Virus record (IMG/VR): IMGVR_UViG_2713896902_000001
Reading direction: 5' to 3' (one strand)
Length of the DNA stretch: 31,164 nucleotides
Origin: a virus
Lineage: Duplodnaviria; Heunggongvirae; Uroviricota; Caudoviricetes
Shown here piece by piece: positions 1 through 23,128 of the stretch. The notes below the pieces were generated by a model. That model saw nothing but the letters and a program-made list of their open reading frames with translations. It ran no database searches and was not told the DNA's origin. Numbering within the stretch: position 1 is the stretch's first letter; each line of letters starts with the position of its first letter. Position numbers and translations under genes: made by a program.

Positions 1-159
1 ATGAAAAACATTGCAGCTATAAAACGTAATAACCGCAAGATTCACGCTCGTAAGTTCCTGTCTACGCCAGAGGGAAAAGCCTGGCTAGAGCGAAAGCAAC
101 GAGAGAACGAAGAAAGAAAACTCCTTAGTGAGTTGAAATGGCTTAGAGAGGATTTCTGA
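1..159 (+). CDS. small basic ORF (52 aa), possibly complete or the C-terminal end of a gene beginning left of the window
   Basis: ATG at position 1, open frame to TGA at 157-159 (MKNIAAIKRNNRKIHARKF...KWLREDF); below the 60-aa track cutoff; no upstream context visible. Confidence 0.25.
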   Translation: MKNIAAIKRNNRKIHARKFLSTPEGKAWLERKQRENEERKLLSELKWLREDF

Positions 160-289
160 AAATCTCCAGAACGCAACAGGACGCATTCTAACGCTGTTTT
201 CATTGCTTTGTATAGGGATGTATAGGTGATGTGTGTTTAATGCGTCTGCGCGCTTGTTTTGTGCCTTATTTTGCATTTTCATAATGCAG

Positions 290-520
290 AAGAGAACACG
301 GAAAGCCTTAAAATTAATTATTGGGGTATTTAAGGGTATTTTCAGGTTATTTAAGGGTATTAAACTTGATTTAATTGATTAAAATATAAACAGATAGTTC
401 TGTATCTTATTGATTTATAAGGTTATTTTTAAATAAAGGTAAATAAAAAATAAATAGCCATAAATAGCTATAAATACATCTAAATACCTATAAATACATC
501 TAAATACCTATATCCCTTCC
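290..520. repeat. AT-rich tandem direct repeats (GGTATTTAAGGGTATT-like x2; six 10-11 bp units of TAAATA(C/G)CNA)
   Basis: Read directly: ...ataaatagccataaatagctataaatacatctaaatacctataaatacatctaaataccta...; lies 3' of the serine recombinase gene. Confidence 0.5.
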
Positions 521-608
521 CTTATGGCTAGATTGCGAGAGGTGCTTAACGCGATTTTTAGCGCCCCCCGATCTGGAAAATCCAGAATCCCCAAATATCA
601 AGGAGGCG

Positions 609-1148
609 TTACGCCTCCTCTTCTTCCTTCTTAATTCGCTGTACCGTCGAAGGAGCAACATTAAAGATCTCGGCGGTTTTACGCACTGACACGCCATCAG
701 AAAGGGCTTTCTTTATACCTTCTCTATCTACTGCCTTACCTTTACCACGCTTTGTAGGATTGACGGCTTGCGCTTCTCGTTTACGCTCTAACATCAGTTC
801 ACGTTCACACGTTGCAACTGCCGACAACATCGTAAGCATCATCTTTCCCATCGCGCTTGTAATGTCTGCAATGATCCCTTCTTTGTGAAATCGAACAATC
901 ACACCTCGATTATTAAGTTGTTCAACTAAAGCAAGGATATCTAAGGTGTTACGTCCTAAACGGTCGAGAGAGTGCACGTGTAAGGTGTCGCCTTCTCTCA
1001 GATAGGATAAACACGCCTGCAATCCTGGACGGTTAGTGTCTTTACCTGACAGCTTATCTTCAAAGACTTTATCAAGCGTTACTCCTGCAAGCTGGCGATC
1101 AGTGTTCTGATCTACAGTGCTCACACGCTTATAACCGATATTGCTCAT
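609..1148 (-). CDS. small serine recombinase (resolvase/invertase family)
   Basis: 179 aa; N-terminal MSNIGYKRVSTVDQ with catalytic-Ser context, DRLGR motif, C-terminal HTH (VSVRKTAEIFNVAPSTVQRIKK); size and layout match Hin/Tn3-resolvase-type recombinases. Confidence 0.85.
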   Translation of the reverse strand: MSNIGYKRVSTVDQNTDRQLAGVTLDKVFEDKLSGKDTNRPGLQACLSYLREGDTLHVHSLDRLGRNTLDILALVEQLNNRGVIVRFHKEGIIADITSAMGKMMLTMLSAVATCERELMLERKREAQAVNPTKRGKGKAVDREGIKKALSDGVSVRKTAEIFNVAPSTVQRIKKEEEEA

Positions 1149-1400
1149 AAAATCCTCTTAATGTATCGATTTGGCACTACTTCAATGCAAATGAGTATAT
1201 CGTATTCATTTGGTCTGTTTCAAGCCTTATGGGTACGGAATATTACACGATTTAGCTGTATTCATTTGGTATGCCTAATGGATACACAGGGGAATAGATT
1301 AAATGGTGTTCTGTTTATACAGGTTTATTTGTTAGATCAACAAGTTGGCATTTCTAAACAGATGTTTGAACGTTGCCAAATGTCTTGACAACACAAGAAA
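1149..1400. promoter_or_regulatory. candidate res-like recombinase site / control region upstream of the serine recombinase
   Basis: Direct repeat GTATTCATTTGGT twice (about 1199 and 1258) plus TGTTT..ACAG-type half-sites immediately 5' of the recombinase start; track ORFs 1161..1388(+) and 1332..1544(-) here look non-coding. Confidence 0.25.
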
Positions 1401-1419
1401 AGGGCTTGCTATGCCACGC

Positions 1420-1840
1420 ATTACACGAAATAAGGCTGTAAAAACAAAATAAATTTTAAAATTTGCACAAACAAGAAAACTCATTAAGAAACAAGCAGAA
1501 CATTTTTTAGCCAATAATTTCTGATGGTGCCCTGTAAGCCGCATTACACAAGGCTTTGCGAAAGTGATGTAAAAGTGAAGAAAGTAAGAATTGCATTTTT
1601 AAGCTACTTTTCACTGAATTTTTAGTAGGGAATTACACAGGAATAAGTTAGGGATATTCTATGATTTACACAGGGAATATAGGGGGATTATGGCACACAC
1701 ATAGAAAGACATTACACAGAGTGCTATGTGACAAATGGATGTAACGAGAGGTTACATTCAGCTATCTGAAATGCTCTCTGTAAGAAAGTTGGTAGTAACG
1801 GTAGGTCACTGTGAGCTAGGGGGTAGGTCACTGTGAACTA
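1420..1840. repeat. iteron-like direct repeats (TTACAC(A/G) x5; GGTAGGTCACTGTGA x2)
   Basis: TTACACAG-like copies near 1422, 1544, 1633, 1666, 1712; 15-bp GGTAGGTCACTGTGA at about 1800 and 1822 separated by 7 bp; no ORF of 60 aa or more on the track between 1544 and 3076. Confidence 0.45.
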
Positions 1841-1899
1841 CAATAAGACTATTAATAAAACTATATTAGATTATTAATTAGATCATAATAATAATATTC

Positions 1900-2340
1900 T
1901 TTATATATATGATCTTTTGCCTTCCGGCGTTAGCTTCACTCTCTGGCAAGCAGCCTTACTCCGCTACCTTTCGGGCTACGTTGGCTGGCCCGTTCCGCTC
2001 ACACCGAAAGCAAAGCGTTACTTTCTTCGTGTAACTATCGTTGGCGGTAACGCCCACGAAGAAATACTATTGCGCTGTGCGCAGTAAGAGTAATCACCTA
2101 ACCAATCATACTGATTGCTTATGTGTTAACTCTCTCTAACTCTTAATTACCCTCCTACATTTAATAACTCTGTTATTCTCTGTAGTCGTGTAATTACTCG
2201 AAGAGAGAGCGGCTAAAGCTCAATTACACTCTGCTTTCCTCGTGTAATTTCACTAAGCCTCAATACAATTCCACTTCCACATTCTGTAGTCGTGTAATTG
2301 TTTTCGGTGGAAAAGCCAGAGGCGACACCGAAAGAGAATT
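1900..2340. other. structured non-coding segment with repeated TCTGTAGTCGTGTAATT (x2), CGTGTAAT(T/C) variants and CACCGAAAG (x2)
   Basis: 17-bp exact direct repeat at about 2179-2195 and 2283-2299; hairpin TTCTTCGTG...CACGAAGAA near 2025-2065; GC-rich island inside AT-rich flanks. Confidence 0.35.
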
Positions 2341-2929
2341 CTGATCTTATTAATCTTATCTATCTTAGTTAATCTTCTTACTTTATCTTACTTATCTTAT
2401 CTACTTTATTATTAATAATAGCTTTATAAGCTCTCTGTGTAGCTCTATGACGCAAGAAACAGCATTCAGGAAGGGAATCACCTTAGAAAAGTGTTCTTTG
2501 CGTCATAATGTGTTTTATGAAGGATTCAGAGGTGTTTCATACCACAAGGTATAGAGGATACTTTTAATTAATTAAAAATAAGGGGTCTAAATGCTTCTCT
2601 AACAGCATTAAGCAGGGTAGGGAATGGAAACGCATTGCCTACACATATAAGCTCACTACAGGGCTTTACAGAGCGTTTTATAAAGTGACTCTCTATCTTA
2701 TATCTACCATCACCTTTTCATATACCTAACAAATACAAATTAAGCCCCTTAAATAAGCCTATGGCGAGCTAAACAGCCATTACATAAGGGAATGTATTGC
2801 TTTTATCAAAACCTCGTTAGAACGCGTTTTAGAGCGTTTTAGACAATAATGAAGAATAGCACCACACAGAAGAGCACGAATTGCTAAGACAAATTATAAC
2901 ATGCTGAAAAAGATCGATTTTTTTCGAAA

Positions 2930-2970
2930 AGGGTATTGACAAATGTTTCTTTATATGTAATAATAGGTAT
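2930..2970 (+). promoter_or_regulatory. sigma70-like promoter for the rightward operon (TTGACA -N17- TAATAA)
   Basis: gggtattgacaaatgtttctttatatgtaataatagg about 110 bp upstream of the 3076 start; a short hairpin + T-run (aagccgtcaggctt...tttttt) precedes the RBS. Confidence 0.3.
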
Positions 2971-3075
2971 TAGAGGGACAGAAAAACATTCTTCTCTAAA
3001 TAATCAAAATCAATGCACTTTGAAGCCGTCAGGCTTGCAAGGTGTTTTTTCTTTTAACTGAATAAGGAGTTTTTT

Positions 3076-3264
3076 ATGAAATGGTTTACACCGGAGCACG
3101 TCGTCTCGGCATTTAAAAAAGGTGAGTTATCTCGCCACCAAGTAGTAATGAATCGTAATATGGCAAGGAGTCGAGGCTATCCAGAGCGAGCAGCTTGCTT
3201 CAATGAAGCACTCAAGATTATTGATGAACTAAGAAAAAATGAAAAAGAATCTGAAACAGAGTAA
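3076..3264 (+). CDS. hypothetical small protein (62 aa)
   Basis: Track ORF; AAGGAG RBS 7 nt upstream; first gene after the promoter. Confidence 0.5.
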   Translation: MKWFTPEHVVSAFKKGELSRHQVVMNRNMARSRGYPERAACFNEALKIIDELRKNEKESETE

Positions 3265-3283
3265 AGAATAGAAGGAGAAAACT

Positions 3284-3454
3284 ATGAGCGAAACTACAGA
3301 AAAGAAAAGACAACCACGCACTTGCTTTCATATTCCTGATGAAGTATTTCAGGTGTTATTTAAAGAAGCCAGAAGTAGACGTATCACTGTCACAGATTAC
3401 ATTCTTGATATGTTGAAAAGAGAGGCTGAAACACTCTCAAATAAAAGCAAGTGA
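3284..3454 (+). CDS. hypothetical small protein (56 aa), possibly ribbon-helix-helix-like
   Basis: ATG at 3284 with GAAGGAG RBS; MSETTEKKRQPRTCFHIPDEVFQVLFKEARSRRITVTDYILDMLKREAETLSNKSK; below track cutoff. Confidence 0.4.
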   Translation: MSETTEKKRQPRTCFHIPDEVFQVLFKEARSRRITVTDYILDMLKREAETLSNKSK

Positions 3455-3507
3455 TTTTTATCACCATAGTAGCGCCATAGAGCGTGATTACATCAAGGAG
3501 ATTTTTA

Positions 3508-4065
3508 ATGATTAACCAACTAACTTTTACAAAACACTATGACACGTTTGATAATGTATCAAAGATTTATTCTGATAAATTCCCTCAAGGAAAAGATTTA
3601 GATCTATTACATATTGTGCTTTATTTTCGATTCCTTAGTTATCAGGAAAACAACCTTAATTGTTATGAAAGTCACGAAACATTAGCTAAGATTTTTAAGT
3701 CTTCATCGTCAACAATTAAACGTAAGATAAACGATCTTAAAGAGATGGGATTATTAGAAACATCCCCACATCCTGATCCGTATATTTCATCTTTGATTTA
3801 CAATGCTCTCCCTCTCACAGATGCACATATTACTCCCCCAGGAGAATCATCACTCTCTGATCTTTCTGAGGCAGAAGAAGCACAGGAACAACCTAAAGGC
3901 CATAAACAGCCTTCTTTTGATGTTCTTGATGATTGGGATGCGCCTTTGCCGTGGGAGACGGAAGAAACACCTGTTTCATCAAGTGAAAAGGTAGCTAATG
4001 ATAATGAGGCATATTTTTCTAAGCATTACCCAAATGTGTATGATGACTTTGATATTCCATTTTAA
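3508..4065 (+). CDS. HTH-type DNA-binding protein with acidic C-terminal tail; possible replication-initiation or regulatory protein
   Basis: Track ORF 3484..4065 (GTG); preferred start is ATG 3508 with AAGGAG RBS; winged-helix-like segment (ETLAKIFKSSSSTIKRKINDLKEMGLLE) then acidic tail; sits downstream of the iteron-rich region. Confidence 0.6.
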   Translation: MINQLTFTKHYDTFDNVSKIYSDKFPQGKDLDLLHIVLYFRFLSYQENNLNCYESHETLAKIFKSSSSTIKRKINDLKEMGLLETSPHPDPYISSLIYNALPLTDAHITPPGESSLSDLSEAEEAQEQPKGHKQPSFDVLDDWDAPLPWETEETPVSSSEKVANDNEAYFSKHYPNVYDDFDIPF

Positions 4066-4076
4066 TAAGGAGGGTT

Positions 4077-4355
4077 ATGATTCAATATTTAGTAAAAAAT
4101 CAAGTAGACAGAATTCAGTGTAATGACACAGGAAAACGCATCTACGAAACACTTGCTTACCTCTATAAAGGAAAGCCAACACCGCTAAAATATAGCGATG
4201 TGTTACACCGAGCAGGGTGCTCTGAAGATGGTTTAAAATTCTGGCTGAAACAGCTATCAAATTTCGGTGTTATAGAGATTAAAGAATTATCTTTCTCTAC
4301 ATTCAATCTCAAAAGACTAAATAGAGAAATAGACTTCATCTATTCCACTCTCTAA
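4077..4355 (+). CDS. hypothetical small protein, possible HTH regulator (92 aa)
   Basis: Track ORF; TAAGGAGGG RBS directly upstream. Confidence 0.6.
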   Translation: MIQYLVKNQVDRIQCNDTGKRIYETLAYLYKGKPTPLKYSDVLHRAGCSEDGLKFWLKQLSNFGVIEIKELSFSTFNLKRLNREIDFIYSTL

Positions 4356-4484
4356 AATCTCTCTATGTAATTAAAATATAAAAGGAAAACATTATTATGA
4401 TAGTAGCTATGTATTGGTTATTGTTCTTTCTCACGTTAGAAACATATTTCGGGGTGTTTTCCTTTAAAAGAAAAGGAAAAATAA

Positions 4485-4895
4485 ATGGCAAAAAGAAAAA
4501 ACAACGTTGTTAAGAAGATCGGTGATTCAGCTTCTCTTCTAAGTAAACCTAAATCTATTCTAAGACGTAAAGACTTTAAAGAGCTAGTTACGCTCACCAA
4601 GCATAATAGCGCCCCTGGCGAATGGAAAACAGAGATCATAGAACATTCTCCCTCTGTGCCTTGTGGAGATGAATTTAACGCCTTACAAGAAATCTTATCT
4701 TCAACACCTGGCGTATTCTGGAAGCCTAGAAAAAGAAAAGAGTATATCGTTGATAGCTCTGATTTACGCAAATACCAGATTTTAGGATTTGAAGACTATA
4801 ACCACTACGTCGGTTATCTCGCCACCAATGGCCTAAATAATTTAGTTCCTGAATTCCAAATTCTAGATAATGCTGATCACTATGGAGACTTTTAA
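4485..4895 (+). CDS. hypothetical protein with basic N-terminus (136 aa); small-terminase-like or DNA-binding role is a guess
   Basis: Track ORF; N-terminal MAKRKNNVVKKIG...KSILRRK is strongly basic; antisense track ORF 4436..4771 judged spurious. Confidence 0.6.
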   Translation: MAKRKNNVVKKIGDSASLLSKPKSILRRKDFKELVTLTKHNSAPGEWKTEIIEHSPSVPCGDEFNALQEILSSTPGVFWKPRKRKEYIVDSSDLRKYQILGFEDYNHYVGYLATNGLNNLVPEFQILDNADHYGDF

Positions 4896-4896
4896 T

Positions 4897-5232
4897 ATGA
4901 ACAACACGTATGATACAATTTATTCACTAATTAATTATTATGAGGATGATTACCTCCTGCCTTTAAACCGTGCTGAACTTGAAGCATATAAAGAAAACAC
5001 ACCATCGGCACTAAATGAGGCGTTTAAACACTGGGATTTAGCTGTGAATGCCTTTGAGCACCTCTCTAAGCGTGTAGAGATGCTCTGCAAGCGCGAAAAC
5101 GCATATCTGACAGCCTCTCAGGTATGGGATCTATCAAACTGGATAGAAGATATCGAAGCTGATGTTCGCTATGTAGGAGACGGACTTGTTGAACTAGCTC
5201 AACGCTTAGGCGCTACTATCACAGAAGAATAA
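4897..5232 (+). CDS. hypothetical acidic protein (111 aa)
   Basis: Track ORF 4870..5232; start placed at ATG 4897 just after the upstream stop (same frame as the track ORF). Confidence 0.55.
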   Translation: MNNTYDTIYSLINYYEDDYLLPLNRAELEAYKENTPSALNEAFKHWDLAVNAFEHLSKRVEMLCKRENAYLTASQVWDLSNWIEDIEADVRYVGDGLVELAQRLGATITEE

Positions 5233-5254
5233 AAAAAGCAACAAAAAAGTTGTA

Positions 5255-5560
5255 AAATATCTTGACATTTCATATATTGTATGTTAATATAATTATATGG
5301 GGTGATTATTTTTCCTTTATTGGTTCGATATTAAAAATTCTTCTTGTCGTTAAAGGGGAGTAAAATCTCCGCTCCCCGCTTCTCCTCCTTAAGTAAATAC
5401 TGTGTCATTATTACCTCTTTTTTCCTTTGTTATGCATACATCTTGGAGTGTGCATAACATAGGGTAATTACAAAGGCGGCTTTAAATGCTGCCTTTTATT
5501 TTGCCCGTTATGCAACTTAAAAGTTGTATTTCTTACTTTAAACAAGGTAACAAGGTTTAT
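5255..5560 (+). promoter_or_regulatory. structured leader with promoter-like TTGACA-N17-TAATAT and several hairpins upstream of the structural-type genes
   Basis: cttgacatttcatatattgtatgttaatat; hairpins GGGGAGtaaaatctccgCTCCCC, GTTATGCATACA...TGTGCATAAC, AAAGGCGGCtttaaatGCTGCCTTT followed by a T-run. Confidence 0.3.
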
Positions 5561-5564
5561 ATAA

Positions 5565-5777
5565 ATGTTGTTTTTAAACGATAAAGAGCAAATCATCAAG
5601 TATCGAGATGAAATGCTGCGAATTACTCCACAAATTACCGAAATGGTAGCTAAATACGCTGGGTGTTCTGTCGAAGAAGTAGAAAGATGTGTTGAAAAAT
5701 ATTTTTCTCCTTCTTCTCCGTCTACACCTTCCCTTAATGAATTAATCAAATTAAAAGCTAAGGAGATTACTAAATGA
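5565..5777 (+). CDS. hypothetical small protein (70 aa)
   Basis: Track ORF; weak RBS; stop overlaps the start of the next gene. Confidence 0.45.
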   Translation: MLFLNDKEQIIKYRDEMLRITPQITEMVAKYAGCSVEEVERCVEKYFSPSSPSTPSLNELIKLKAKEITK

Positions 5778-6136
5778 TTATTGATTTAGACACTCTGTTT
5801 CCAGTTCGAAAGACTTTCACAGATATTGTAAGTTATTGTACTGATCCGTTTGCCTCTGTAGAAAGCAAGGTTTTTGCTTCTCTTCCTGCTGATGTTGAGT
5901 GCGGAGACTTGATCACCAGCACGGGCGCTAAATATGAATCAGGAGATGATGTCTATGTTGTTATGAGTGAGTTTGTAACGGCTGGAGACAACAAGCCTGT
6001 AGATATTTTACGTAGCAATGCTGGGCTTGTATGCATCAAAGCTGATGCCCTGAATGCTGTAAGTGAAGCAGCAAAAACAGCATTAATTAAAAAAGGCTTC
6101 CAGCTTGAAGGCTTTAATACGGTTTTCACTTCTTAA
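5774..6136 (+). CDS. hypothetical protein (120 aa), possibly a head-decoration-like protein
   Basis: Track ORF; AAGGAG RBS; size, composition and position immediately 5' of the capsid-like gene recall lambda D-type decoration proteins; assignment by context only. Confidence 0.55.
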   Translation: MIIDLDTLFPVRKTFTDIVSYCTDPFASVESKVFASLPADVECGDLITSTGAKYESGDDVYVVMSEFVTAGDNKPVDILRSNAGLVCIKADALNAVSEAAKTALIKKGFQLEGFNTVFTS

Positions 6137-6154
6137 TAAAAGGAATAATAATAA

Positions 6155-7183
6155 ATGATTCTAGGTAATGATTACGTTGATTTAGCTCCGCTTTTCCAGG
6201 CTCATAGCACTAGAAATTATCTGCTTTCTACTCTCGACTTCACTGATCCGGTGGGCGTTAGTTCTCATAAAGTAGCTGTTTCCCAGCTTGTCGAAAGCAA
6301 CGAATCTCTCTTTAACAAAGAAACCTCTCGTTTCTCTTCTGAACACAATGTTACTAAGCGAGAACAAGGTAAAGAATGGCTGATTGAAATCCCGTATTTT
6401 CTTCGTGAGGATGTGATTCGTCCTTCTGATGTTCAAGGCAAGCGTAAGCCTGGCACTGATTTTCAGGAAACACTCACTGATATTTATGCTGAGTATGTTG
6501 CTAAACACCACGTAGCGTATCAGCGTACAAAAGAGAGCGTATTGGCTGCTTCTTTGTTCTCTGGCAAAACTTACACACCGAAAACTGATGATGTGTTAAT
6601 TGAGTGGGGCAAGCTGTTTAACGTATCAGCTATGAAAGCCACTGTGAACGCTTCCAGCACTGACACCACGAAGATTTTTAAAGAATTTGATCAGATTGCT
6701 ACTAACATTTTTGAAATCACACAAAGCCAGGCGTCAGCGGTAGAAAGAATTGTTGTTTTCTGTAAGCCGGAAGCCTTCTCTGCAATTCGATTCTCTGCGG
6801 GTATGGCAAACGCATTCCAGTATGTAAGCCCACTGGAAGAGGGGAATGTTGTGTACCAGCGTCGTGACCTGCTGCCAGGAGTGACAGCGTTCACTATTCC
6901 AGGAACTAACATTGATGTTGTTAAACTGGTAGATCCGCTACACCTTGCACATATGACCGCTGACGCTGTAGCTGTTCCGAAGTTTGCTAAAGGCTCTAAT
7001 GTATATCAGAACATCTACGGGGCTGCTTCCAGCACCTTTGAACTGATTAATGCCGCTCCTGCTGAGGTGTACAGCTATAGCTATGAATCTTCTCGTGGTG
7101 ATGCTGTTAACGTTGTTACAGAGAATAGCCAGATGGTTGTAAACCACGGTGTAGGCTTCTCCGTTCAAATCACTGTTAAATAA
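6155..7183 (+). CDS. putative major capsid-like structural protein (342 aa)
   Basis: Track ORF; Ala/Ser/Thr/Val-rich, Cys-poor composition; followed by a strong intrinsic terminator; preceded by a decoration-like gene; about the size of lambda E-type capsid proteins; no search run. Confidence 0.6.
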   Translation: MILGNDYVDLAPLFQAHSTRNYLLSTLDFTDPVGVSSHKVAVSQLVESNESLFNKETSRFSSEHNVTKREQGKEWLIEIPYFLREDVIRPSDVQGKRKPGTDFQETLTDIYAEYVAKHHVAYQRTKESVLAASLFSGKTYTPKTDDVLIEWGKLFNVSAMKATVNASSTDTTKIFKEFDQIATNIFEITQSQASAVERIVVFCKPEAFSAIRFSAGMANAFQYVSPLEEGNVVYQRRDLLPGVTAFTIPGTNIDVVKLVDPLHLAHMTADAVAVPKFAKGSNVYQNIYGAASSTFELINAAPAEVYSYSYESSRGDAVNVVTENSQMVVNHGVGFSVQITVK

Positions 7184-7196
7184 TATTTAACGTGTA

Positions 7197-7236
7197 ATAG
7201 AGGCGTGGCGTGTATTCACGCTTCGCCTTTTTTTAT
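7197..7236 (+). terminator. Rho-independent terminator after the capsid-like gene
   Basis: gaggcgtggcgtgtattcacgcttcgcc stem followed by tttttttatttatttttt. Confidence 0.6.
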
Positions 7237-7268
7237 TTATTTTTTAAATTTTGAGAGGTGATTAAAAT

Positions 7269-7472
7269 ATGGAAGTGATTCTGAAATCAAAAAATGGTGT
7301 ACACGTACATTTAGATGCTAATGATTCTAGAGGCTTGTTAAATCTGAAATATCTATGTTCTCTCTTAGATGTGCCATATGAAGGAGTAAAAGCCCGTATG
7401 TTCAGATTAAACGAGAGTATTGATCAGGCTCTACACCATTTCTTAAGCAAAGAAGGTGGTAAAAATGATTAA
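7269..7472 (+). CDS. hypothetical small protein (67 aa)
   Basis: Track ORF; GAGAGGTGA RBS. Confidence 0.45.
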   Translation: MEVILKSKNGVHVHLDANDSRGLLNLKYLCSLLDVPYEGVKARMFRLNESIDQALHHFLSKEGGKND

Positions 7473-7486
7473 TAAGGGGATTTTAA

Positions 7487-9331
7487 ATGTTAGAAATTAA
7501 CACTTCTAAAATTAAGAACACAGTTACATTTAGTGTAGATAAAGACAGCTTGAAAAAAGCGAAAGACTCTATTACAGGCTTAAAGGAATTCGCAGAGAAC
7601 ATCAAGCCAGCTAAATTAAGGTTTGATAATGTCACTAAAGGCTATAAGAAAGCACAAAACGAAGTAGACAAGATTGCTCAACAGAAAGCTAAAACAGAAA
7701 AGCAGAATCAAAGAGCACAAGCTGCCGCAGCAAGAGCACAGGCAAGGCAACAGGCACAAATAGCAGCACGTAAAGAGAAAGCAGAATTAAAACTTCTCGA
7801 TGTGTCAAGCTCTATCAGTGCAATGCACCGCCTCTCTGTAGCGGAACAATACAAAGCTATTGCACAGGCTAGAGAGATAGCAAAACAATATGAGCAAGGG
7901 GCTATCTCGCTTGCACGTATGAATAGCCAAATGAAACGCTTACAACAACAACAACGTAAGATTAATGGCAACAGAAAAGCTCAATTTGCCCCCGTTAAAG
8001 GAGGATCAGGGAATTCCGCCACTATGGGCGCTCTGTTATTTGGAGGCGCTACAGCGGCGGCTGGCGTGATGGCTGTAAGCAAAGCCTCTGATTTTGTTAC
8101 TAGCAGCTTCGCTAACGCAGAGACGCAAGGGGAGCTAATTCAACGGGCCAAGCTGGGCGGTGTAGACGTTAACCAGATGTATAATATTACAGAATGGGCG
8201 TATAGAAACGGCGTTGACTCTATGATGGGTGATCAAGGTGCTAGGAAATACCTGGATCAGATGAAAGATGTTAGGGAACGTGCCGCAAAATCCTATAGTG
8301 AAGCTGAATTAGTGAAAGATAAGAAAACCGGAAAATCAGGGAAATGGAAAGGCGGTGATAACGCTATTAATGAACTTCTAAACATCGGTGTTATTAACAA
8401 AAGCGACCTTAAAAAATTTGCTGATAATCCAGCCGGATTAATTTCTAAGGCTGTTAATGGAATGATGAAAAAAGGGTTTTCAGACTCCCAAATTGGACAA
8501 CGTTTAGAAGACCTGGGCGATGATTTGATGCTTACGTCAAAATATTGGCAACGTTCCGTTAAAGATGTACAAGAAAGTATTAATCAGCAAAAAGCCTCTG
8601 GAAAATGGCTAACAGAAACACAGCAAGAATCTATCGTTAAATTCAGAGAACTAAACAGACAGCTTTCACAGCTTTCTGATGCAAGGCAAGTAGCATTCGT
8701 AGACGGCTTTATGAAATCTCTCGATCCAAAAGTAACGGAAGAGTTTATGAAAAACCTTTCTAATCTCACTCCGTATTTTACGAAGCTGGGAGAAGCTGCA
8801 GGAAGTCTCTTTGAGGCCATTATGAAGATTGTAAACTGGTTTAATCGTAATGATGATAAGACAGATGCTATTCAGAAAAATTTAGGTGATGCACCGCCAT
8901 TAAGCAATGATGGAATGAAACAGCATCTTTCTAATCTCGTTCCTGATCAATATAAAGGCGCTGGCACTGCAACAACTACACCTGATAATAGTCATTCTCT
9001 CTTTAACACGATTAAGGGATTGCTTTTCGATGATAATGCTTCTTCTGTATCAGATGTAAAAATGTCAGTCAGCGAAGCACCGATAACCAATCTCAAACAG
9101 GGTGCTTTAAATAATCTTGCAATGACAACTCCGGCTTATAATTTATCTCCTGTGTTTAATCTGAATCCAACGTTTGAAGTGGTAACAGAGGTTCCTCTTA
9201 CTATTAATTCTGACACATCCAGATTAAGCGATTATGTGGATTTTACAGCGAGAGCAAGTCGGGATAGCTTCTTGAAATCATTAACATTAACCAGCTTATC
9301 AGGACAATCTAACGGCGGGGACCCGCCATAA
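7487..9331 (+). CDS. large coiled-coil protein with a Gly/Ala-rich hydrophobic segment (614 aa); virion-internal, tape-measure-like or ejection-like protein
   Basis: Track ORF; AAGGGGA RBS; N-terminal Ala/Gln/Lys-rich heptad-like region (QKAKTEKQNQRAQAAAARAQARQQAQIAARKEK), hydrophobic GGSGNSATMGALLFGGATAAAGVMAV; antisense Cys-rich ORF 7708..7971 is a mirror artefact of the Ala/Gln codons. Confidence 0.7.
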   Translation: MLEINTSKIKNTVTFSVDKDSLKKAKDSITGLKEFAENIKPAKLRFDNVTKGYKKAQNEVDKIAQQKAKTEKQNQRAQAAAARAQARQQAQIAARKEKAELKLLDVSSSISAMHRLSVAEQYKAIAQAREIAKQYEQGAISLARMNSQMKRLQQQQRKINGNRKAQFAPVKGGSGNSATMGALLFGGATAAAGVMAVSKASDFVTSSFANAETQGELIQRAKLGGVDVNQMYNITEWAYRNGVDSMMGDQGARKYLDQMKDVRERAAKSYSEAELVKDKKTGKSGKWKGGDNAINELLNIGVINKSDLKKFADNPAGLISKAVNGMMKKGFSDSQIGQRLEDLGDDLMLTSKYWQRSVKDVQESINQQKASGKWLTETQQESIVKFRELNRQLSQLSDARQVAFVDGFMKSLDPKVTEEFMKNLSNLTPYFTKLGEAAGSLFEAIMKIVNWFNRNDDKTDAIQKNLGDAPPLSNDGMKQHLSNLVPDQYKGAGTATTTPDNSHSLFNTIKGLLFDDNASSVSDVKMSVSEAPITNLKQGALNNLAMTTPAYNLSPVFNLNPTFEVVTEVPLTINSDTSRLSDYVDFTARASRDSFLKSLTLTSLSGQSNGGDPP

Positions 9332-9352
9332 CATTACAAGGAAATTATTATT

Positions 9353-10066
9353 ATGGCGACCGCCGGGATTTTAACCATACGTGCAGCAAATACTCCAGAA
9401 CAACACGTTCAGGCTGTTTACAAAGCAGAACAAGATATAAACTCTACAAAAAACGAAAATAGCAAAGCTAATAAAACAAAAGGAGAGAACGGATTTGCTA
9501 TTGTTACCAGTGGACTGGCATCTTCTGGTAATGATGTTTATGAAAATTATATGGCACTGGCCTTTGATAGTGTTGACGATGTGAACGTGAGACGTTCGGC
9601 AGATGTCACAAGCTACCCCGTAGAAAATGGTGCTACTGTGTCTGATCACGTTCAAATTAAAAACAATAAGTTCTCTCTTAAAGGGCGTATCTCTGAAACA
9701 CCGATTAAAAGCGATCCTGGCTTGTTAAAGAGTGCAGGGGTGAACGGGAACAGAAGATCATTGGCTATTGATTATCTGAATCAGATTATGGACAGTAGAC
9801 AGCCTTTTCTTCTTGTTACAGAAAATAAAACTTTTGAGAACGTTGTTTTAACAGGCATCGAATACACAGAAGAGGCAAGCGAATCCCTGGTATTTGATCT
9901 TAGCTTTGAGCAGATCAGGCTCGTTTCGTATGGCACTGTAAACACTGTAGCTATCAAAACACAGCCATCTAAGAACATCGGGGCTAATATGAAAAAACGT
10001 GTTAACACTGAAAAACCAAGTAGTGAAGGTGAAGACACTATTACTCCTGCCTTTAAACAGGAATAG
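9353..10066 (+). CDS. hypothetical protein (237 aa), possibly structural
   Basis: Track ORF; AAGGA RBS; last gene of the rightward operon. Confidence 0.65.
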   Translation: MATAGILTIRAANTPEQHVQAVYKAEQDINSTKNENSKANKTKGENGFAIVTSGLASSGNDVYENYMALAFDSVDDVNVRRSADVTSYPVENGATVSDHVQIKNNKFSLKGRISETPIKSDPGLLKSAGVNGNRRSLAIDYLNQIMDSRQPFLLVTENKTFENVVLTGIEYTEEASESLVFDLSFEQIRLVSYGTVNTVAIKTQPSKNIGANMKKRVNTEKPSSEGEDTITPAFKQE

Positions 10067-10104
10067 CCGTAAATGCCTCTAAAACGCTCTGTAACGATGT
10101 AATT

Positions 10105-10140
10105 ATAAAAGAGGCTACCAACTATGTTGAATCCTCTTTA
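10105..10140. terminator. hairpin between convergent genes (bidirectional terminator candidate)
   Basis: TAAAAGAGGctaccaactatgttgaatCCTCTTTA between the 9353..10066 gene and the minus-strand integrase. Confidence 0.4.
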
Positions 10141-10146
10141 TTGCGT

Positions 10147-11481
10147 CTATGACGTTGTTTTACGCCTTAAATTTGATTTTTTATTGATTGATAAGCCTTT
10201 CTCTATTTCAGGGTAGCGTAGAAGCTCAATATATTTTTTAAGCTCTACTGGAGAAGCTGCATTCTTGCTATATGTGCGGAATGTTTCTGTATTGCCGCGT
10301 GTATGGCCCAGGAGAAGGGCGATCCTGTCTTCTGGAATTTGATTTCGATCAAGAAGCTGTGCTACTCCGTGTCTCAGAGAATGAAACACTTTCCTTTCTG
10401 TTCCCTTTTCCCCTAAAGCCTTTCGTTTAGCTCTTGTAAATCTCTGCGTGTGCCACGTGGAACGTTTACCATCAGCACGCTCTGTAATGCTGGCGTGATA
10501 GAACAAAAAGCCATTATGAGGCTTTTCACGCAGCGACAACACCAACGGAGTGATAAGGCTATGCACAGGAACAAGACGTGCCGCAGCTTTCGTTTTTCCC
10601 TGTGTGATTTCAAAACACAGCACACCTTCGATCTCTTTCACATCGTCTATTGTGAGACTTGCTATCTCATTGATCCGCATACCTGTATAAGCACCGATAA
10701 GACACAAAGCCATCATTTCTTTGTTTTCTGCTGAATCACCGGAAAATACTTGCAACACCTGCAATAGCTCTTTGTTAGAAAATGCCTCATAGCTCTCTCT
10801 ACTTTGTGCCACATCAAGCCTATGCCCTCGCCAGGGGGAGAGCGCCCTTTCTGGCGCATCGTGGTAACGTGATGAAGCTAACTCCCATAGCTGGGCCATT
10901 GGGCTGATATAATTTGCAATTGATTGTTGTGAAAGGGTTTTTTGCATGTGTTCTATCCAGCCTGTAACAGTGGTGCGGCTTACATCTTGCAATGCAATAT
11001 CAGGCTTTTTACGGTAGGAGAGAAACATCTCTACCGCTTTTCTTGCCTTAGCTAAAGTGGCTGGCTTCTTCTTCGTGCTGTTAATTGTCAGGTAGATTTC
11101 AAGAATTTTAAGCAATGACGGACACGAAGACGCTGTATCTTGCATTCTGGTAGCTGTTTTGGCGTATTTAGCCTTACTGCGTAACAGTTCCAGCGTGTTC
11201 TCTATTGTGCTGTTTACAGGAGCGACACTCTCGCGTAAGCAATGGTATTCATCTGCAATCTGATCACGCTTTCTACGTGCAACACGAAGGTTACTTGTAT
11301 GCAGACTCCTGACAAACGTCCTTTTTCCTTCAAAAAAGGGCTGCATATACACAGGCAGCGTGATCCTTAAATAGTAGTTACCGTAAGAATCACAGATTAT
11401 GTATTGATTGGGCTTGTATCTCATAAACTCCCCGGCTAAAGTGTCGGAGCGTTTGTAATGTGAAAATTGATTGTAACGCAT
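10147..11481 (-). CDS. int: tyrosine recombinase / phage-type integrase (444 aa)
   Basis: C-terminal catalytic signature: R in GMRINEI, HSLRHG (H-x-x-R), LLGH, Y in TFRTYSK; N-terminal arm-binding-like region. Confidence 0.85.
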   Translation of the reverse strand: MRYNQFSHYKRSDTLAGEFMRYKPNQYIICDSYGNYYLRITLPVYMQPFFEGKRTFVRSLHTSNLRVARRKRDQIADEYHCLRESVAPVNSTIENTLELLRSKAKYAKTATRMQDTASSCPSLLKILEIYLTINSTKKKPATLAKARKAVEMFLSYRKKPDIALQDVSRTTVTGWIEHMQKTLSQQSIANYISPMAQLWELASSRYHDAPERALSPWRGHRLDVAQSRESYEAFSNKELLQVLQVFSGDSAENKEMMALCLIGAYTGMRINEIASLTIDDVKEIEGVLCFEITQGKTKAAARLVPVHSLITPLVLSLREKPHNGFLFYHASITERADGKRSTWHTQRFTRAKRKALGEKGTERKVFHSLRHGVAQLLDRNQIPEDRIALLLGHTRGNTETFRTYSKNAASPVELKKYIELLRYPEIEKGLSINKKSNLRRKTTS

Positions 11482-11751
11482 AGAAAATGATAATTTTTTC
11501 TATAAGATTCAATCAATTAGTAATGGTCGTAGGTGATGGCATTAACACGAGATTAATCGAGTGTTTTACTCCTATTATCGGCACCATTCAAACATCTCCC
11601 CAAGTCTACTAAAGTCTTTCAAAACCCCTTATAATCCACGTATTAAAGCCCCGTTCGTCTTTTGACGTCTACTAAAGTCCCTCAAAATCTACGGTCAGAT
11701 GGGGGTACTTATGGGGGTATTTGCTGTTCGGTTTAGTGGAGGTACCCCCAA
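11482..11751. promoter_or_regulatory. shared control region between divergent integrase genes with 20-bp direct repeats
   Basis: GTCTACTAAAGTC(T/C)(T/C)TCAAAA twice (about 11605 and 11660); GGGGGTACttatgggggtatttgctgttcggtttagtggagGTACCCCC inverted repeat just before the int start; partly duplicated near 30794-31035. Confidence 0.4.
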
Positions 11752-12966
11752 GTGAAACTCAATGCCCGTCAAATAGACACAGCCAAGCCAAAAGAGAAGG
11801 CTTACAAGCTGGCCGATGGTGGCGGTTTGTATCTCTTGGTAAAACCTAATGGAGGTAAATACTGGCGACTTAAATATCGTGTAGCTGGTAAAGAGAAGCT
11901 ATTGGCACTAGGTGTGTATCCTGAGGTTACTCTAGCCGATGCTCGGGCAAAACGTGAAGATGCGAAAAGAGGTATCGCTGGTGGTATCGATCCGATGGAA
12001 GCGAAACGAGAGGAAAAGATTGCCCGGGAAACGCAGTTAAACAACACCTTCAAAGATATTGCCCTTGAGTGGCACAGCAGCAAATTAAAAAAATGGTCTG
12101 CTGGTTATGCTTCAGACATCCTCGAAGCCTTCAACAAAGATGTGTTCCCTTACATTGGCAAAAAACCAATCGCCGAAATCAAACCACTTGAACTTCTGAA
12201 TGTGCTGCGGCGCATCGAGGGGCGCGGTGCGACAGAAAAAGCCAAAAAAGTGAGGCAGCGGTGCGGGGAAGTTTTCCGCTATGCAATAGTCACTGGTCGC
12301 GCAGAGTATAACCCTGCACCAGACCTTACTAGCGCGATGCAAGGCCATGAATCTAATCATTACCCTTTCCTTACGACCAAAGAATTACCTGATTTTTTCA
12401 AGGCATTGTCCAGTTACTCAGGAAGCGCATTGGTTGTTATGGCGGCTCGTCTACTGATTATCACCGGCTTGCGAACTGGCGAACTACGTGGCGCATTATG
12501 GGATGAAATTGATTTCAACAAGGCTATATGGGAGATACCCGCTTCACGTATGAAAATGCGGCGGCCTCATATTGTGCCATTGTCTGAGCAGGCTCTTTCG
12601 CTTATTGGGAAGATTAGAGAAATAACAGGCAATTACCCTCTTATGTTTCCCGGGCGCAATGATCCAAGGAAAACAATGAGTGAGGCCAGCATAAACCAAG
12701 TGTTTAAGCGCATTGGCTACGCTGGACGTGTAACTGGTCATGGGTTCCGGCACACTATGAGTACGATTTTGCATGAGCAGGGCTATAACACTGCGTGGAT
12801 AGAAACACAGCTCGCTCACGTTGATAAGAACTCAATTCGTGGCACATACAACCATGCGCAATATCTGGATGGAAGGCGGGAGATGCTTCAATGGTATGCC
12901 GACTATATGGATGCGCTGGAGAAGGAGGAGAACGTTGTTCATGGTTCGTTTGGGAAACGAGCTTGA
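11752..12966 (+). CDS. int: P4-type tyrosine integrase (404 aa)
   Basis: GTG start with GGAGGT RBS; N-terminal arm-binding domain motif GGGLYLLVKPNGGKYWRLKYR; C-terminal catalytic residues (GLRTGEL, HGFRHT, Y in RGTYNH). Confidence 0.9.
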   Translation: MKLNARQIDTAKPKEKAYKLADGGGLYLLVKPNGGKYWRLKYRVAGKEKLLALGVYPEVTLADARAKREDAKRGIAGGIDPMEAKREEKIARETQLNNTFKDIALEWHSSKLKKWSAGYASDILEAFNKDVFPYIGKKPIAEIKPLELLNVLRRIEGRGATEKAKKVRQRCGEVFRYAIVTGRAEYNPAPDLTSAMQGHESNHYPFLTTKELPDFFKALSSYSGSALVVMAARLLIITGLRTGELRGALWDEIDFNKAIWEIPASRMKMRRPHIVPLSEQALSLIGKIREITGNYPLMFPGRNDPRKTMSEASINQVFKRIGYAGRVTGHGFRHTMSTILHEQGYNTAWIETQLAHVDKNSIRGTYNHAQYLDGRREMLQWYADYMDALEKEENVVHGSFGKRA

Positions 12967-13100
12967 CTGTATGAATAGACAGTGTCAAGCAATGGTAGTA
13001 GACTTATGTAGACGAACAAAGAATAGGCTATGTCTAGGCTGATCCCCGAAAACCCGTACACCCCTACGGGCTGGCATAGCCGTCAGAATTAGGGGCGCGG
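12967..13100. other. nested hairpin structures downstream of int (terminator or structured RNA/att-like element)
   Basis: GCTTGACtgtatgaatagacagtGTCAAGC, then GGCTATG...CCCGTAcacccctACGGG...CATAGCC nested stems. Confidence 0.3.
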
Positions 13101-13108
13101 GGTGGCGT

Positions 13109-13990
13109 ATGGTGAGAGCCAAAAAACAAGATTTAGCATGGTTTGATATTAATAATTATGAATTTTTAAATGATTTAACCTTGCCGGACTTGATTCAAGA
13201 ATTAGAGTGGCGTGATTTTTTATTGCGTCATGCAAAAGATGACACTGCTATATTCAAAGAAGAGTACGATATAAAATATGAAAGAATTTTTTCGGGCGAT
13301 CCTAACCTAACCATTCTCAATGAAGAAGAGGAAGAGGTTGAAGAATTTATTCGCAAAGTAAATGATGAAGCCCCATCATTAAGAAATGAGTACGATGATC
13401 TTCCCTCATTATCTTCAGCTATGGGGGTTAGTCCAGTAACATTTTCAGAGCTGGCTATGTACTCTTTCTCATCGATAGATCAAGGCTTTTTTAAAAGAGA
13501 CGAAGAGGATTGCTACCTCAAGGCAAACGCTATGCTTGCGAGTGTTACTGGAAACCTAAGTAATTGTTCCCCTAACATCATACTCGTTTCTATAGATTTA
13601 GATGACGCCACTGATGACGAAATTATTACCAGCCTGACTCACCTTCTACCTCTATGGCGAAAAGAGTTAAAAGTACCAGAGAGAGAGCATGTCGCTCAGA
13701 AAAGGATTGGATTAAAGACCCTCCAGAAGTTGATATCTAATAGAGTGATACCTATTGTTGATCTGCTGATTTGGGGTGAGAAGTCAGGTAAGGAAGTGAG
13801 CAATCCGATGATTTCTGCCTTGGTTTTTAGTGATGATCCGAAAGATACGCAGGCTATTAAGGAATCAATAAAGCCTTTTGCACTTGAATCCATAAGCGAG
13901 AGATACACCCGCTTGCTTCAGCTTTATGTAAACAAAGACAGAGAAATGAGCTTGATAAAAATATCTGATTTAATGAGTAGAGATTTATAG
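13109..13990 (+). CDS. hypothetical protein (293 aa), AT-rich cargo gene between int and alpA
   Basis: Track ORF; visibly lower GC than flanking int and alpA; acidic runs (NEEEEEVEEF, DLDDATDDEI); no recognisable catalytic motif by eye. Confidence 0.7.
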   Translation: MVRAKKQDLAWFDINNYEFLNDLTLPDLIQELEWRDFLLRHAKDDTAIFKEEYDIKYERIFSGDPNLTILNEEEEEVEEFIRKVNDEAPSLRNEYDDLPSLSSAMGVSPVTFSELAMYSFSSIDQGFFKRDEEDCYLKANAMLASVTGNLSNCSPNIILVSIDLDDATDDEIITSLTHLLPLWRKELKVPEREHVAQKRIGLKTLQKLISNRVIPIVDLLIWGEKSGKEVSNPMISALVFSDDPKDTQAIKESIKPFALESISERYTRLLQLYVNKDREMSLIKISDLMSRDL

Positions 13991-14069: not shown

Positions 14070-14187
14070 ATAATCTTCTCAAAAAAATATTTTATTTTTA
14101 TCCGCTATCACCCACTCACCTGTTTGTTTAATCTCCTTTCTGTCTACTGATGTCCATTAAAGAAGATGACAGAATATAGGAGTAAAC

Positions 14188-14385
14188 ATGTCTCAATCAT
14201 TTATTCGTCTTTCTGAGGTTCAACGCCGTACTGGTTACAGCAAAGCGTGGATTTATCGGCTCATCAAAGAACAGCGATTCCCTCAATCTGTAAAGATTGG
14301 AAGCCGATCAATTGCGTTTATTGAAAGTGAAATTGAAGAATGGATTAATCAGCGCATCGCTGAGTCGCGTGGCGAGGTAGCGTAA
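14188..14385 (+). CDS. alpA: AlpA/Vis-family phage transcriptional regulator (65 aa)
   Basis: HTH pattern LSEVQRRTGYSKAWIYRLIKEQRFP...IESEIEEWINQR typical of AlpA-family proteins; position after int as in P4-like and PICI-like islands. Confidence 0.85.
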   Translation: MSQSFIRLSEVQRRTGYSKAWIYRLIKEQRFPQSVKIGSRSIAFIESEIEEWINQRIAESRGEVA

Positions 14386-15662: not shown

Positions 15663-15837
15663 GCCGACAGGAACACCACAACCTCAAAAACGCTACAAAG
15701 ATGCCCACGGAGCACTCGTTACTGTCGAAAGCGTGTCTCACAACCGAGTGACGTTTTATCGCGACGGGTATCAATCGCCATGCGTACAACCGCTGGCGCG
15801 CTTCATGAAGGAGTTCGCGGAGGTTAACAAATGCTAA
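15655..15837 (+). CDS. hypothetical small protein (60 aa)
   Basis: ATG 15655 with GGAGG RBS overlapping the upstream stop; internal start of track ORF 15568..15837. Confidence 0.4.
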   Translation: MFKPTGTPQPQKRYKDAHGALVTVESVSHNRVTFYRDGYQSPCVQPLARFMKEFAEVNKC

Positions 15838-16898
15838 CCGTCCAGAAGAAGATATTTTCACTGGCTGGTATGTCACCAAAATCCAGCAATATGACAGCAA
15901 AGTCTGGCATTAATACAGCAGATACAAGCAAAGTTTATCATTTTCTGGTGGTAGGAGCGGATGCCTTAACTATGTCAGAAATTACGGTCGATGGTGTTAG
16001 CGTTGAGAAGGTCAGCGGCTGCGCCAGAGAATTTCTGGTCGTAGATGGCTTTCTCTGCTCGCGTAGTGACTCCACAAAAACCTTCGTCCATACGCGCGAC
16101 GTTAACGAAATGAGCGCGATGTATTGTGCATCTGGTGCTTCCAATAGTGAGTTTTCGGAGTCCATAAAAAAGAGCTTGCCGTTATGCGGCAACACGGTTT
16201 ATGGTTATAAGGCACCTCATAAAACGGGTGCCGGGATTGGCGTCCTGAAAATTCTGAAGGCGACATATGACGCGCCGAGCGTCTTTTTTTATGTCGTAGG
16301 TCTGACTCACCCATTTTTTGGGCGTTGGTGTATAATCCAGCGCCTTTGTCAATCAATGGTGGCTCAGGCGGGGGCTTCTTCGGAAGCGCCGGTATCCTTC
16401 AGAGCCGGTTACGCCAACCCTGTCTGGGCTACCACCAGCGAAATTGGCGTTTCCGGTGGTAGCGTAACCTGCTATCTGAAGGAGGCTGCCACATGCTGGC
16501 TACTACCCCTACCCAAAAACCGCAATTTATCTGGATTATCGCCGCAGTTCGCCGCGATTGCCCGACAATTACCGCCAAAATTCATCATATTGCTGCCGAG
16601 TCTGAACGCGATGCTCGCCGTTCTCTGGTGCGCGATCACGTCTGCTTTTTTGCTGGTCGTATCCGCATGGAGGTGGCACATGATTAAAACCTACGATGTG
16701 CATATGGATCCCCTCGAACGCACAAGCCAGATCATCACACTGACAGAAGTGATTAATGACATTCTGGTGAGCAACTCTCCCTCACGAGACGAAAAACTGA
16801 AGGCGTTACTCGCGATATTGGATCTCGCCGTTCGTGACGTTCATTTCCTGCTGGAAGGTGGCGAAATGCCAGGAAAAACGGGGGCAACCAATGAATAA
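15831..16898 (+). CDS. long ORF of uncertain authenticity (355 aa); the 3' part probably corresponds to separate small genes
   Basis: No stop in this frame, but a well-supported 64-aa gene (16493..16687) is embedded in another frame and a strong internal RBS/ATG sits at 16680; composition looks atypical (Cys/Trp-rich). Confidence 0.3.
16493..16687 (+). CDS. hypothetical small protein (64 aa)
   Basis: Track ORF; AAGGAGG RBS 8 nt upstream of ATG. Confidence 0.4.
   Translation: MLATTPTQKPQFIWIIAAVRRDCPTITAKIHHIAAESERDARRSLVRDHVCFFAGRIRMEVAHD
16680..16898 (+). CDS. hypothetical small protein (72 aa)
   Basis: GGAGG RBS then ATG 16680 overlapping the stop of 16493..16687; same frame as the long ORF. 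Confidence 0.4.
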   Translation: MIKTYDVHMDPLERTSQIITLTEVINDILVSNSPSRDEKLKALLAILDLAVRDVHFLLEGGEMPGKTGATNE

Positions 16899-22666: not shown

Positions 22667-23128
22667 ATGGAACTAAAATTTATTGATAACCCGGTGCGAT
22701 TACAGGCCTTTCTTAACGAGCCTGCCAATACCGAAAATATTGTTGAGCCGGGGCACACGTACTACATCAAGCCTGATGCGGTATATCTCGGCATCTACGA
22801 AGGATTGGTGCTGGCTGGCGTTCATGAAGTGCGTAACTTCTGGCATAGCATTGTTGAATGTCATGCGGTGTACGACCCCGGATTCCGTGGTGAATATGCA
22901 CTGCAAGGGCATCGATTATTCTGCAAATGGCTTCTCGAAAACTCACCATTCCTTAACAGCATCACTATGGTTCCTGACACCACGAAATACGGACGGTCAA
23001 TTATCCGTTTGCTTGGCGCTACCCGTGTTGGTCACCTGGCCGATGCATATATCAGATGTGGTAAACCCGTCGGCGTAACGCTTTATCAGTTAACTCGGCA
23101 ACAATATAAGGAACTCAGCGAATGTTAA
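22667..23128 (+). CDS. hypothetical protein (153 aa)
   Basis: Track ORF; stop overlaps the next gene start. Confidence 0.6.
   Translation: MELKFIDNPVRLQAFLNEPANTENIVEPGHTYYIKPDAVYLGIYEGLVLAGVHEVRNFWHSIVECHAVYDPGFRGEYALQGHRLFCKWLLENSPFLNSITMVPDTTKYGRSIIRLLGATRVGHLADAYIRCGKPVGVTLYQLTRQQYKELSEC

Follow-up and report, generated by a model that had tools for sequence, protein, structure and literature searches.

The thrW gene ranks among the most used tDNA integration hotspots of Escherichia coli, and several named islands are found there (PMC7545054). Tandem prophages are known at thrW in O157:H7 (PMC9997748). Integrases are known to cluster at hotspots, and P4-like elements have been reported in tandem (PMC8628076). 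Three similar attachment (att) sites are the usual sign of tandem pairs, which form a routine category in island mapping (PMC10111431). The order at this site in K-12 is proA, thrW (tRNA-Thr CGU), the cryptic prophage CP4-6 with intF, a copy of thrW, and yagP. The left border of CP4-6 is thrW adjoining proA, and its right border is at yagP. Here, we analyzed the IMG/VR virus record IMGVR_UViG_2713896902_000001 (Caudoviricetes), a stretch of 31,164 nucleotides that is called the window below. It carries two divergent tyrosine integrase genes, intA of an element A and intB of an element B. The window covers the thrW integration hotspot of E. coli, which is located between proA and yagP/paoD and in which integrative elements stand head to tail with a copy of the thrW 3' end at each junction. 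The arrangement was very probably produced by tandem accretion at thrW, in which the independent elements A and B were inserted one after the other and the core was common to both. Neither the phenomenon nor its mechanism is new, and the junction needs no novel explanation.

The junction of elements A and B at thrW

By megablast, the region belonged to the E. coli chromosome, next to yagP'/paoD in the closest genomes. In E. coli MS 85-1 (locus L001), the same array stopped at a cut-off LysR gene (yagP), which was followed by paoD and paoC. Neither the window nor the locus of MS 85-1 gave a tRNA call with ARAGORN, as expected where thrW was present as 3' fragments only. The thrW fragment was located by pattern search once the K-12 context had been recognised. 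It consisted of the last bases of thrW and the two bases downstream of it (ACTCCTATTATCGGCACCATT). This copy, at 11568-11588, is the attR of A and the attL of B at once. intA abutted the attR of A, intB abutted the attL of B, and both open reading frames (ORFs) were intact. An earlier reading of the sequence alone had overlooked this key feature, and also the TGGGGGTAYTT doublets described below. It had correctly recognised two divergent tyrosine integrase genes with a 270-bp spacer (ORFs 10147-11481, minus strand, and 11752-12966, plus strand). However, the RefSeq start of intA in near-identical genomes was the ATG equivalent to 11424, with a GGGGAG Shine-Dalgarno sequence upstream. This meant that the spacer was probably 327 bp, not 270 bp.

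A copy of the tRNA 3' end was found at each junction of the array. In the window these were the copy at 11568-11588 and a degenerate copy at 30879-30896. MS 85-1 added one at the left end of A, whose left att lay just outside the window. The copy at 30879 closes B and opens a third, decayed P4-type element, element C. The arm of element C was 82% identical to window 11562-11633, with GTCTACTTAAGT at 30912. Its int pseudogene lacked roughly codons 3-175 and showed 70% identity to IntB residues 176-212 by tblastn. In MS 85-1, the degenerate copy was followed directly by chromosomal yagP'. One G was missing from the right att of B in both the window (30879-30896) and MS 85-1 (L001 40044-40061), and the left copy was perfect. 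If the G-less copy mirrors the attP of B, strand exchange would take place 3' of the gap, inside CACCATT; a mutation that arose later would explain the gap equally well.

A fourth member of the array was observed in MS 85-1 to the left of A (L001 6157), with toxin-antitoxin genes (RnlAB) and remnants of phage tail fibres. More of thrW was kept at the junction of this member, beginning with the anticodon arm, and the same holds for the IntF-type element of K-12. The unequal thrW stretches at the junctions indicated that at least three integrase lineages use overlapping, unequal parts of thrW.

The independence of the two elements was examined in 5426 complete E. coli genomes. A junction query of 701 bp matched 1344 of them, and both halves were joined in only 71, which included O104:H4 outbreak strains (complete RefSeq genomes). 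The remaining matches covered either positions 319-701 of the query (window 11568 onwards, annotated as 'tRNA-Thr | integrase') or positions 1-343/347 (to window 11592-11596). In separate searches, the arm of A was found in about 452 genomes and B-type arms in about 974. Obligate co-occurrence of the two genes and the full spacer was thus not what the genomes showed, with 71 joined cases against 452 A arms and 974 B-type arms. About 82 genomes had both arms (from the 1344 with either), against 81 expected if the arms were independent, in a rough estimate that ignored phylogeny.

All four states of occupancy were found: empty, A only, B only, and A and B joined. An artificial empty-site query, proA-thrW fused to the yagP flank, was matched end to end in 948 of the genomes, for example ATCC 8739. 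B stood directly after an intact thrW in EC17GD31 and JNU. In EC17GD31, the intact thrW continued into the right-hand sequence of the window, both direct repeats included. A stood alone between an intact thrW and yagP' in OkiPb01705 and GPEC1366. In these two genomes, the left-hand sequence with the large inverted repeat ran into the 21-mer and then into the chromosomal flank AAAATCAAAG...yagP'. The lone A of GPEC1366 was about 12.5 kb long and lay between an intact thrW and a thrW copy. A was also joined at the same point to another P4-type island, the vat pathogenicity island. The megablast breakpoints of A-only and B-only genomes coincided with the thrW copy at 11568-11588. The sequence-only reading had proposed two independent elements meeting at one junction, and comparison with genomes lacking one or both elements bore this out. 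The halves occurred apart in many genomes, the breakpoint was at the thrW copy, and this copy was the att site. Constant co-occurrence of the two integrases as a single element, which that reading had named as the observation that would refute it, was not seen, and the two arms were joined in only 71 of the approximately 1344 genomes with either arm.

The proposal that one element had inserted at the attachment region of its neighbour was essentially right. Two targets were open to the newcomer, the intact thrW and the thrW 3' copy at the border of the element already in place. If B was the resident, A would have entered at the intact thrW, upstream of it. If A was the resident, B would have entered at the thrW copy with which A ends. 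An identical junction results either way, so the order of arrival is not deducible from the structure. Each integrase would recombine inside the common core and assemble on its own arm DNA, which is to the left for A and to the right for B. Present-day competence for excision is predicted for the elements.

It was considered unlikely that the array was built in this lineage by homologous recombination, through transduction or conjugation between strains with different thrW islands, instead of by integrase. The shared flanks or the shared thrW copies could serve such exchange. The modules were mosaic, since the neighbour to the right of A was B, the vat island or the chromosome, depending on the strain, and the cargo of B between int and alpA was unlike that of MS 85-1. 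The junction sequence would be the same by either route, and nothing separated this exchange from entry by integrase. However, both int genes were intact with catalytic motifs. The precise att-hybrid junction fitted site-specific insertion, which was in any case the original mode of arrival of the elements. A single composite element, with the spacer as a shared bidirectional control region of both integrase genes, was extremely improbable: although the genes were divergent and close, the spacer was full of repeats and the arrangement recurred in 71 genomes including the O104:H4 strains, the halves alone were far commoner (452 and 974 vs 71 joined), the breakpoints were exactly at the thrW copy, lone A and lone B were each flanked by their own thrW copies, and the repeats segregated with one element only, so the population data already refute it. 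The shared control region had been the other option of the sequence-only reading, and it was not supported, since the direct repeats were in the arm of B only and the large inverted repeat was in the arm of A only.

For annotation, these results mean that the integrase pair should be taken neither for a single element nor for a novelty of regulation. Three elements in the window have their exact borders marked by the thrW 3' copies, which aids the calling of islands and prophages.

Attachment-site layout of element B

The attP of B was compared with that of P4 using the GenBank record of P4, in which 12-bp 'attP arm sequence repeats' are annotated in four places. Both arms have a tandem doublet, which on the side of int is at 113-136 bp from the core and on the opposite arm at 54-77 bp. 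An inverted copy lies over the int start codon and a further copy lies inside the int gene. B shared three of these features, with a related sequence, namely the int-side doublet, the inverted copy at the int start and the doublet of the other arm. The TGGGGGTAYTT doublets on both arms of B matched the annotated repeats of P4 in position, and the reconstructed attP of B was collinear with the P4 attP by alignment. Because of this match in position, the doublets and the inverted copy are the best candidates for arm-type IntB sites. They probably mediate autorepression of int as in P4, where Int and Vis are reported to repress Pint (PMC7286903, PMC2603039). We infer from positional homology which protein of B would bind which repeat.

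Two direct repeats were located between the core and the doublets. They had been reported from the sequence alone as 20-bp repeats. The repeats were real, but each was 21 nt long, with 19 of 21 positions identical and the copies 63 bp apart. The P4 attP contained two direct repeats of the form CCGAG-N4-GTCC (CCGAGAAAGTCC and CCGAGGTTGTCC) exactly 63 bp apart, and these were aligned with the boxes of B. An Rfam scan of the spacer at E<=1 gave no match, indicating that no known RNA accounted for the repeats. In P4, Vis has its sites in two boxes that lie in the interval from the core to int. The GTCTACTAAAGTC / GTCTACTNAAGT boxes of B are most likely sites of an AlpA/Vis-type excisionase, or possibly extra Int sites or sites assisted by IHF, as judged from their position. 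P4 Vis is reported to leave footprints within attP, besides repressing Pint (PMC2603039, PMC7286903).

The boxes might instead be chance or decaying duplications without binding function, which we regard as distinctly improbable. Only two copies were perfect, and the near-copies at 13002 and 14142 were not conserved in MS 85-1. In contrast, the motif was over-represented. When up to 1 mismatch was allowed, 5 copies of the 12-mer GTCTACTNAAGT were counted in the window, where 0.35 would be expected, and none of 100 shuffles reached 5. Both boxes were kept in B-type arms that were only 84-89% identical overall. Copy 1 was invariant in six B-type arms and survived even in the decayed element C. 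It was present beside the intact thrW where B was alone and absent where A was alone. P4 also had a repeat pair in this place, likewise spaced by 63 bp although of another sequence, which argued against non-functional repeats.

Near-copies of GTCTACTNAAGT were also observed outside the arm, at 13002-13013 (minus strand), just downstream of intB, and at 14142-14153 (plus strand), with 46 bp between it and the alpA-like gene downstream. In MS 85-1, one near-copy was present just downstream of int (L001 23693) and none near alpA.

Several points weighed against tandem accretion with the att sites as assigned here. The co-occurrence arithmetic mixed three different queries and left out phylogenetic relatedness. 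The loss of one G in the right att of B might impair excision. The promoter scan predicted no convincing sigma-70 promoter for intB inside the arm of B. The near-copies at 13002 and 14142 were not conserved in MS 85-1, so the AlpA assignment of the GTCTAC boxes was weak.

A further reading, taken jointly, holds that the hybrid junction couples A and B functionally and, separately, that A and B are themselves undescribed satellite-like families. It was judged very unlikely. Candidate IntB/AlpA sites were no more than about 120 bp away from the promoter region of intA, and the 20-bp core was the same for the two integrases. If the coupling were true, inducing one element could change the expression or excision of its neighbour, or the array could move as a composite unit. 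As for families of satellite-like elements, A may be one, with capsid, tape-measure-like and Dit-like genes and a DUF6538 integrase, and B may be another, with a P4-type backbone and P22-like ejection proteins.

Features and gene content of the elements

The features of the tandem array are collected in Table 1.

Table 1. Coordinates of the elements, integrase genes, attachment-site features and regulatory loci in the window
Feature	Position	Strand	Remark
Element A (right ~11.5 kb)	1..11567		Pfam/PHROGs content, GC 34-43%, alignment to MS 85-1
Integrase A	10147..11424 (longest ORF to 11481)	-	Tyrosine recombinase, N-terminal DUF6538
Inverted repeat, 23-nt arms 11465-11487 and 11496-11518	11465..11518		Right arm of A
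thrW 3'-end copy, 21 bp, ACTCCTATTATCGGCACCATT	11568..11588	+	Identical to K-12 thrW
Direct repeat copy 1, GTCTACTAAAGTCTTTCAAAA	11604..11624	+	int-proximal arm of B
Direct repeat copy 2, GTCTACTAAAGTCCCTCAAAA	11667..11687	+	Spaced 63 bp from the first copy
Tandem 12-bp doublet, ATGGGGGTACTT and ATGGGGGTATTT	11699..11722	+	Candidate int-side arm repeat, 111-134 bp from core
Inverted candidate arm repeat, TGGGGGTACCT	11740..11750	-	Abuts GTG start codon of intB
Integrase B	11752..12966	+	P4-family tyrosine integrase; GTG start, GGAGG Shine-Dalgarno
int-alpA RNA motif (RF02996)	13027..13094	+	Rfam 46.7 bits vs gathering score 35.8
AlpA/Vis-type excisionase-regulator	14188..14385	+	PHROGs 'excisionase and transcriptional regulator'
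Far-arm doublet, TGGGGGTGCTT and TGGGGGTATCT	30797..30819	+	Candidate arm repeat, right arm of B, 60-82 bp from core
Degenerate thrW 3' copy, one G missing, TCCTATTATCG-CACCATT	30879..30896	+	attR of B, attL of third element
Element C start	30897..31164	+	Decayed P4-type; B-like arm, int pseudogene

The longest ORF of intA encoded 444 aa, and the RefSeq start gave 425 aa. Pfam assigned PF00589, DUF6538 and a SAM-like domain (SAM_5) to it. The R, HxxR, H and Y motifs were identified by eye in the translations of both IntA and IntB, and the two proteins were 24% identical over the catalytic domain only. No close phage homologue of IntA was found, the best match being 28% identical. IntA was also considered as an orthologue of K-12 IntF. 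This was rejected because identity was 24% over the catalytic domain only. A full-text literature search for DUF6538 gave no papers.

An inverted repeat in the spacer had been noted from the sequence alone. Several were present, and the largest, with 23-nt arms, surrounded the intA start of the longest ORF. Promoter-like hexamers overlapped it on both strands, and in the promoter scan such hexamers were found in this inverted repeat of A only. The repeat was unchanged in a genome with A alone and is a candidate for the intA promoter/operator. When shared arm motifs were sought between the left and right arms of A, only a 10-mer and an 8-mer were obtained, which were unconvincing.

The gene content of A by Pfam and PHROGs comprised a resolvase/invertase, a rep-like helix-turn-helix (HTH) protein, a lambda-E-like major capsid protein, a 614-aa tape-measure-like (TMP-like) protein, a Dit-like tail protein and IntA. 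A was a compact island of low GC (34-43%), about 12.5 kb long (locus L009, 6849-19320), and was carried by about 452 of the 5426 genomes. Neither a terminase nor a portal was recognised among its genes. Element A may thus far have escaped description as a satellite-like element or a defective one. When the window was compared with phages by megablast, only short matches were obtained, in the gp14-like region and a 116-bp segment, which meant that neither A nor B was a known phage.

IntB was 404 aa long. Its domains, Arm-DNA-bind_3 (1e-28), Phage_int_M (1e-34) and PF00589 (2e-26), formed the P4-type architecture in Pfam. It was 42% identical to P4 Int over the full length (E=2e-116). The assignment of the plus-strand integrase to the P4 type from the sequence alone was therefore confirmed by both domain architecture and identity. 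IntB scored 300 bits against NF007246, under the cutoff of 434 bits, and was about 49% identical to integrases of the Sf6, CUS-3 and HK620 type. The AlpA-like HTH protein (14188-14385) was 39% identical to P4 Vis (ORF88). B also encoded an alpha-type primase, and Rfam detected int-alpA, isrK and a C4/CI-type antisense RNA in it.

Element B is P4-related and about 19 kb long, and it was not filed as a canonical P4-like satellite. The criteria for such satellites are int, psu, delta, sid, alpA, epsilon, plus alpha (Moura de Sousa & Rocha; PMC8628076). Among the ORFs scanned with PHROGs and Pfam, psu, delta, sid and epsilon gave no match; no dedicated hidden Markov model search was made for them, and some small ORFs of B were not in the scan.

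An intact P22-like podophage ejection cassette was observed in B at 22667-27835, between the cognate P4-type arms. It encoded gp14-like (153 aa), gp7-like (225 aa), gp20-like (439 aa) and gp16-like (908 aa) proteins. The gp16-like protein had an extra N-terminal transglycosylase-like region and was 46-52% identical to known versions in P22-like phages. The cassette could represent capture of late genes by a satellite of P22-like phages. A literature search for satellites with P22 ejection proteins gave nothing.

A DUF6387 gene (13109-13990) lay between int and the alpA-like gene of B. It was absent from the otherwise 97%-identical element of MS 85-1, which had 493 bp of unrelated sequence instead, and the slot looks like a variable cargo position. 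PADLOC gave no match for the DUF6387 gene or other cargo. The isrK RNA (16212-16289) and the C4 antisense RNA (16352-16439), both on the plus strand, lay inside the span of a 355-aa ORF of the Ash family (15831-16898). One possibility is that the call of the Ash ORF extends too far; the other is that the RNAs sit within coding sequence, as they do in immunity regions of the P4 type.

Comparison with described systems

The tandem elements described at thrW, including CP4-6 in K-12, the vat pathogenicity island (vat-PAI)/PAI III536 in extraintestinal pathogenic E. coli and the prophages of O157:H7, occupy the same chromosomal site, proA-thrW ... yagP-paoD. They resemble the array of the window in having a thrW 3' copy at each junction, their own integrase beside the att site, and an occupancy that varies by strain (PMC7545054, PMC9997748). 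The partners differ, since a DUF6538-integrase element stands beside a P4-related element here. A differed from CP4-6 in its integrase, as IntA was 24% identical to IntF, and in the block of identity, which was about 20 bp for A and about 47 bp of thrW for CP4-6.

Compared with Gram-negative phage-inducible chromosomal islands (PICIs) and int-alpA islands, B lacked recognised packaging or capsid-redirecting genes, had no known helper phage, and at about 19 kb was above the typical size of an E. coli PICI. It was similar to them in the succession of its genes, with int first, followed by alpA, Bro-type genes (AntA, Ash), a primase and, last, late-type genes (zones per PMC10111431, PMC6092414). 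The int-alpA RNA motif was also present in B.

B was also close to the Int/attP/Vis module of the satellite phage P4. The target is leuX in P4 and thrW in B. The arm repeats were TGGGGGTA in B and TGGGGGCA in P4, and the boxes were GTCTACTNAAGT in B and CCGAG-N4-GTCC in P4. Unlike P4, B carried AntA and Ash 'Bro-zone' genes and the P22-like ejection cassette. Both elements targeted the 3' end of a tRNA gene and had int beside attL, the arm repeats were at nearly equal distances from the core, with an inverted copy at the int start, and the pair of boxes spaced by 63 bp was common to the two. The layout of the P4 attP, with arm doublets, inverted copy and 63-bp-spaced boxes, was thus conserved in a relative that targets thrW, and it supplies candidate binding sites for work on excision control in these islands.

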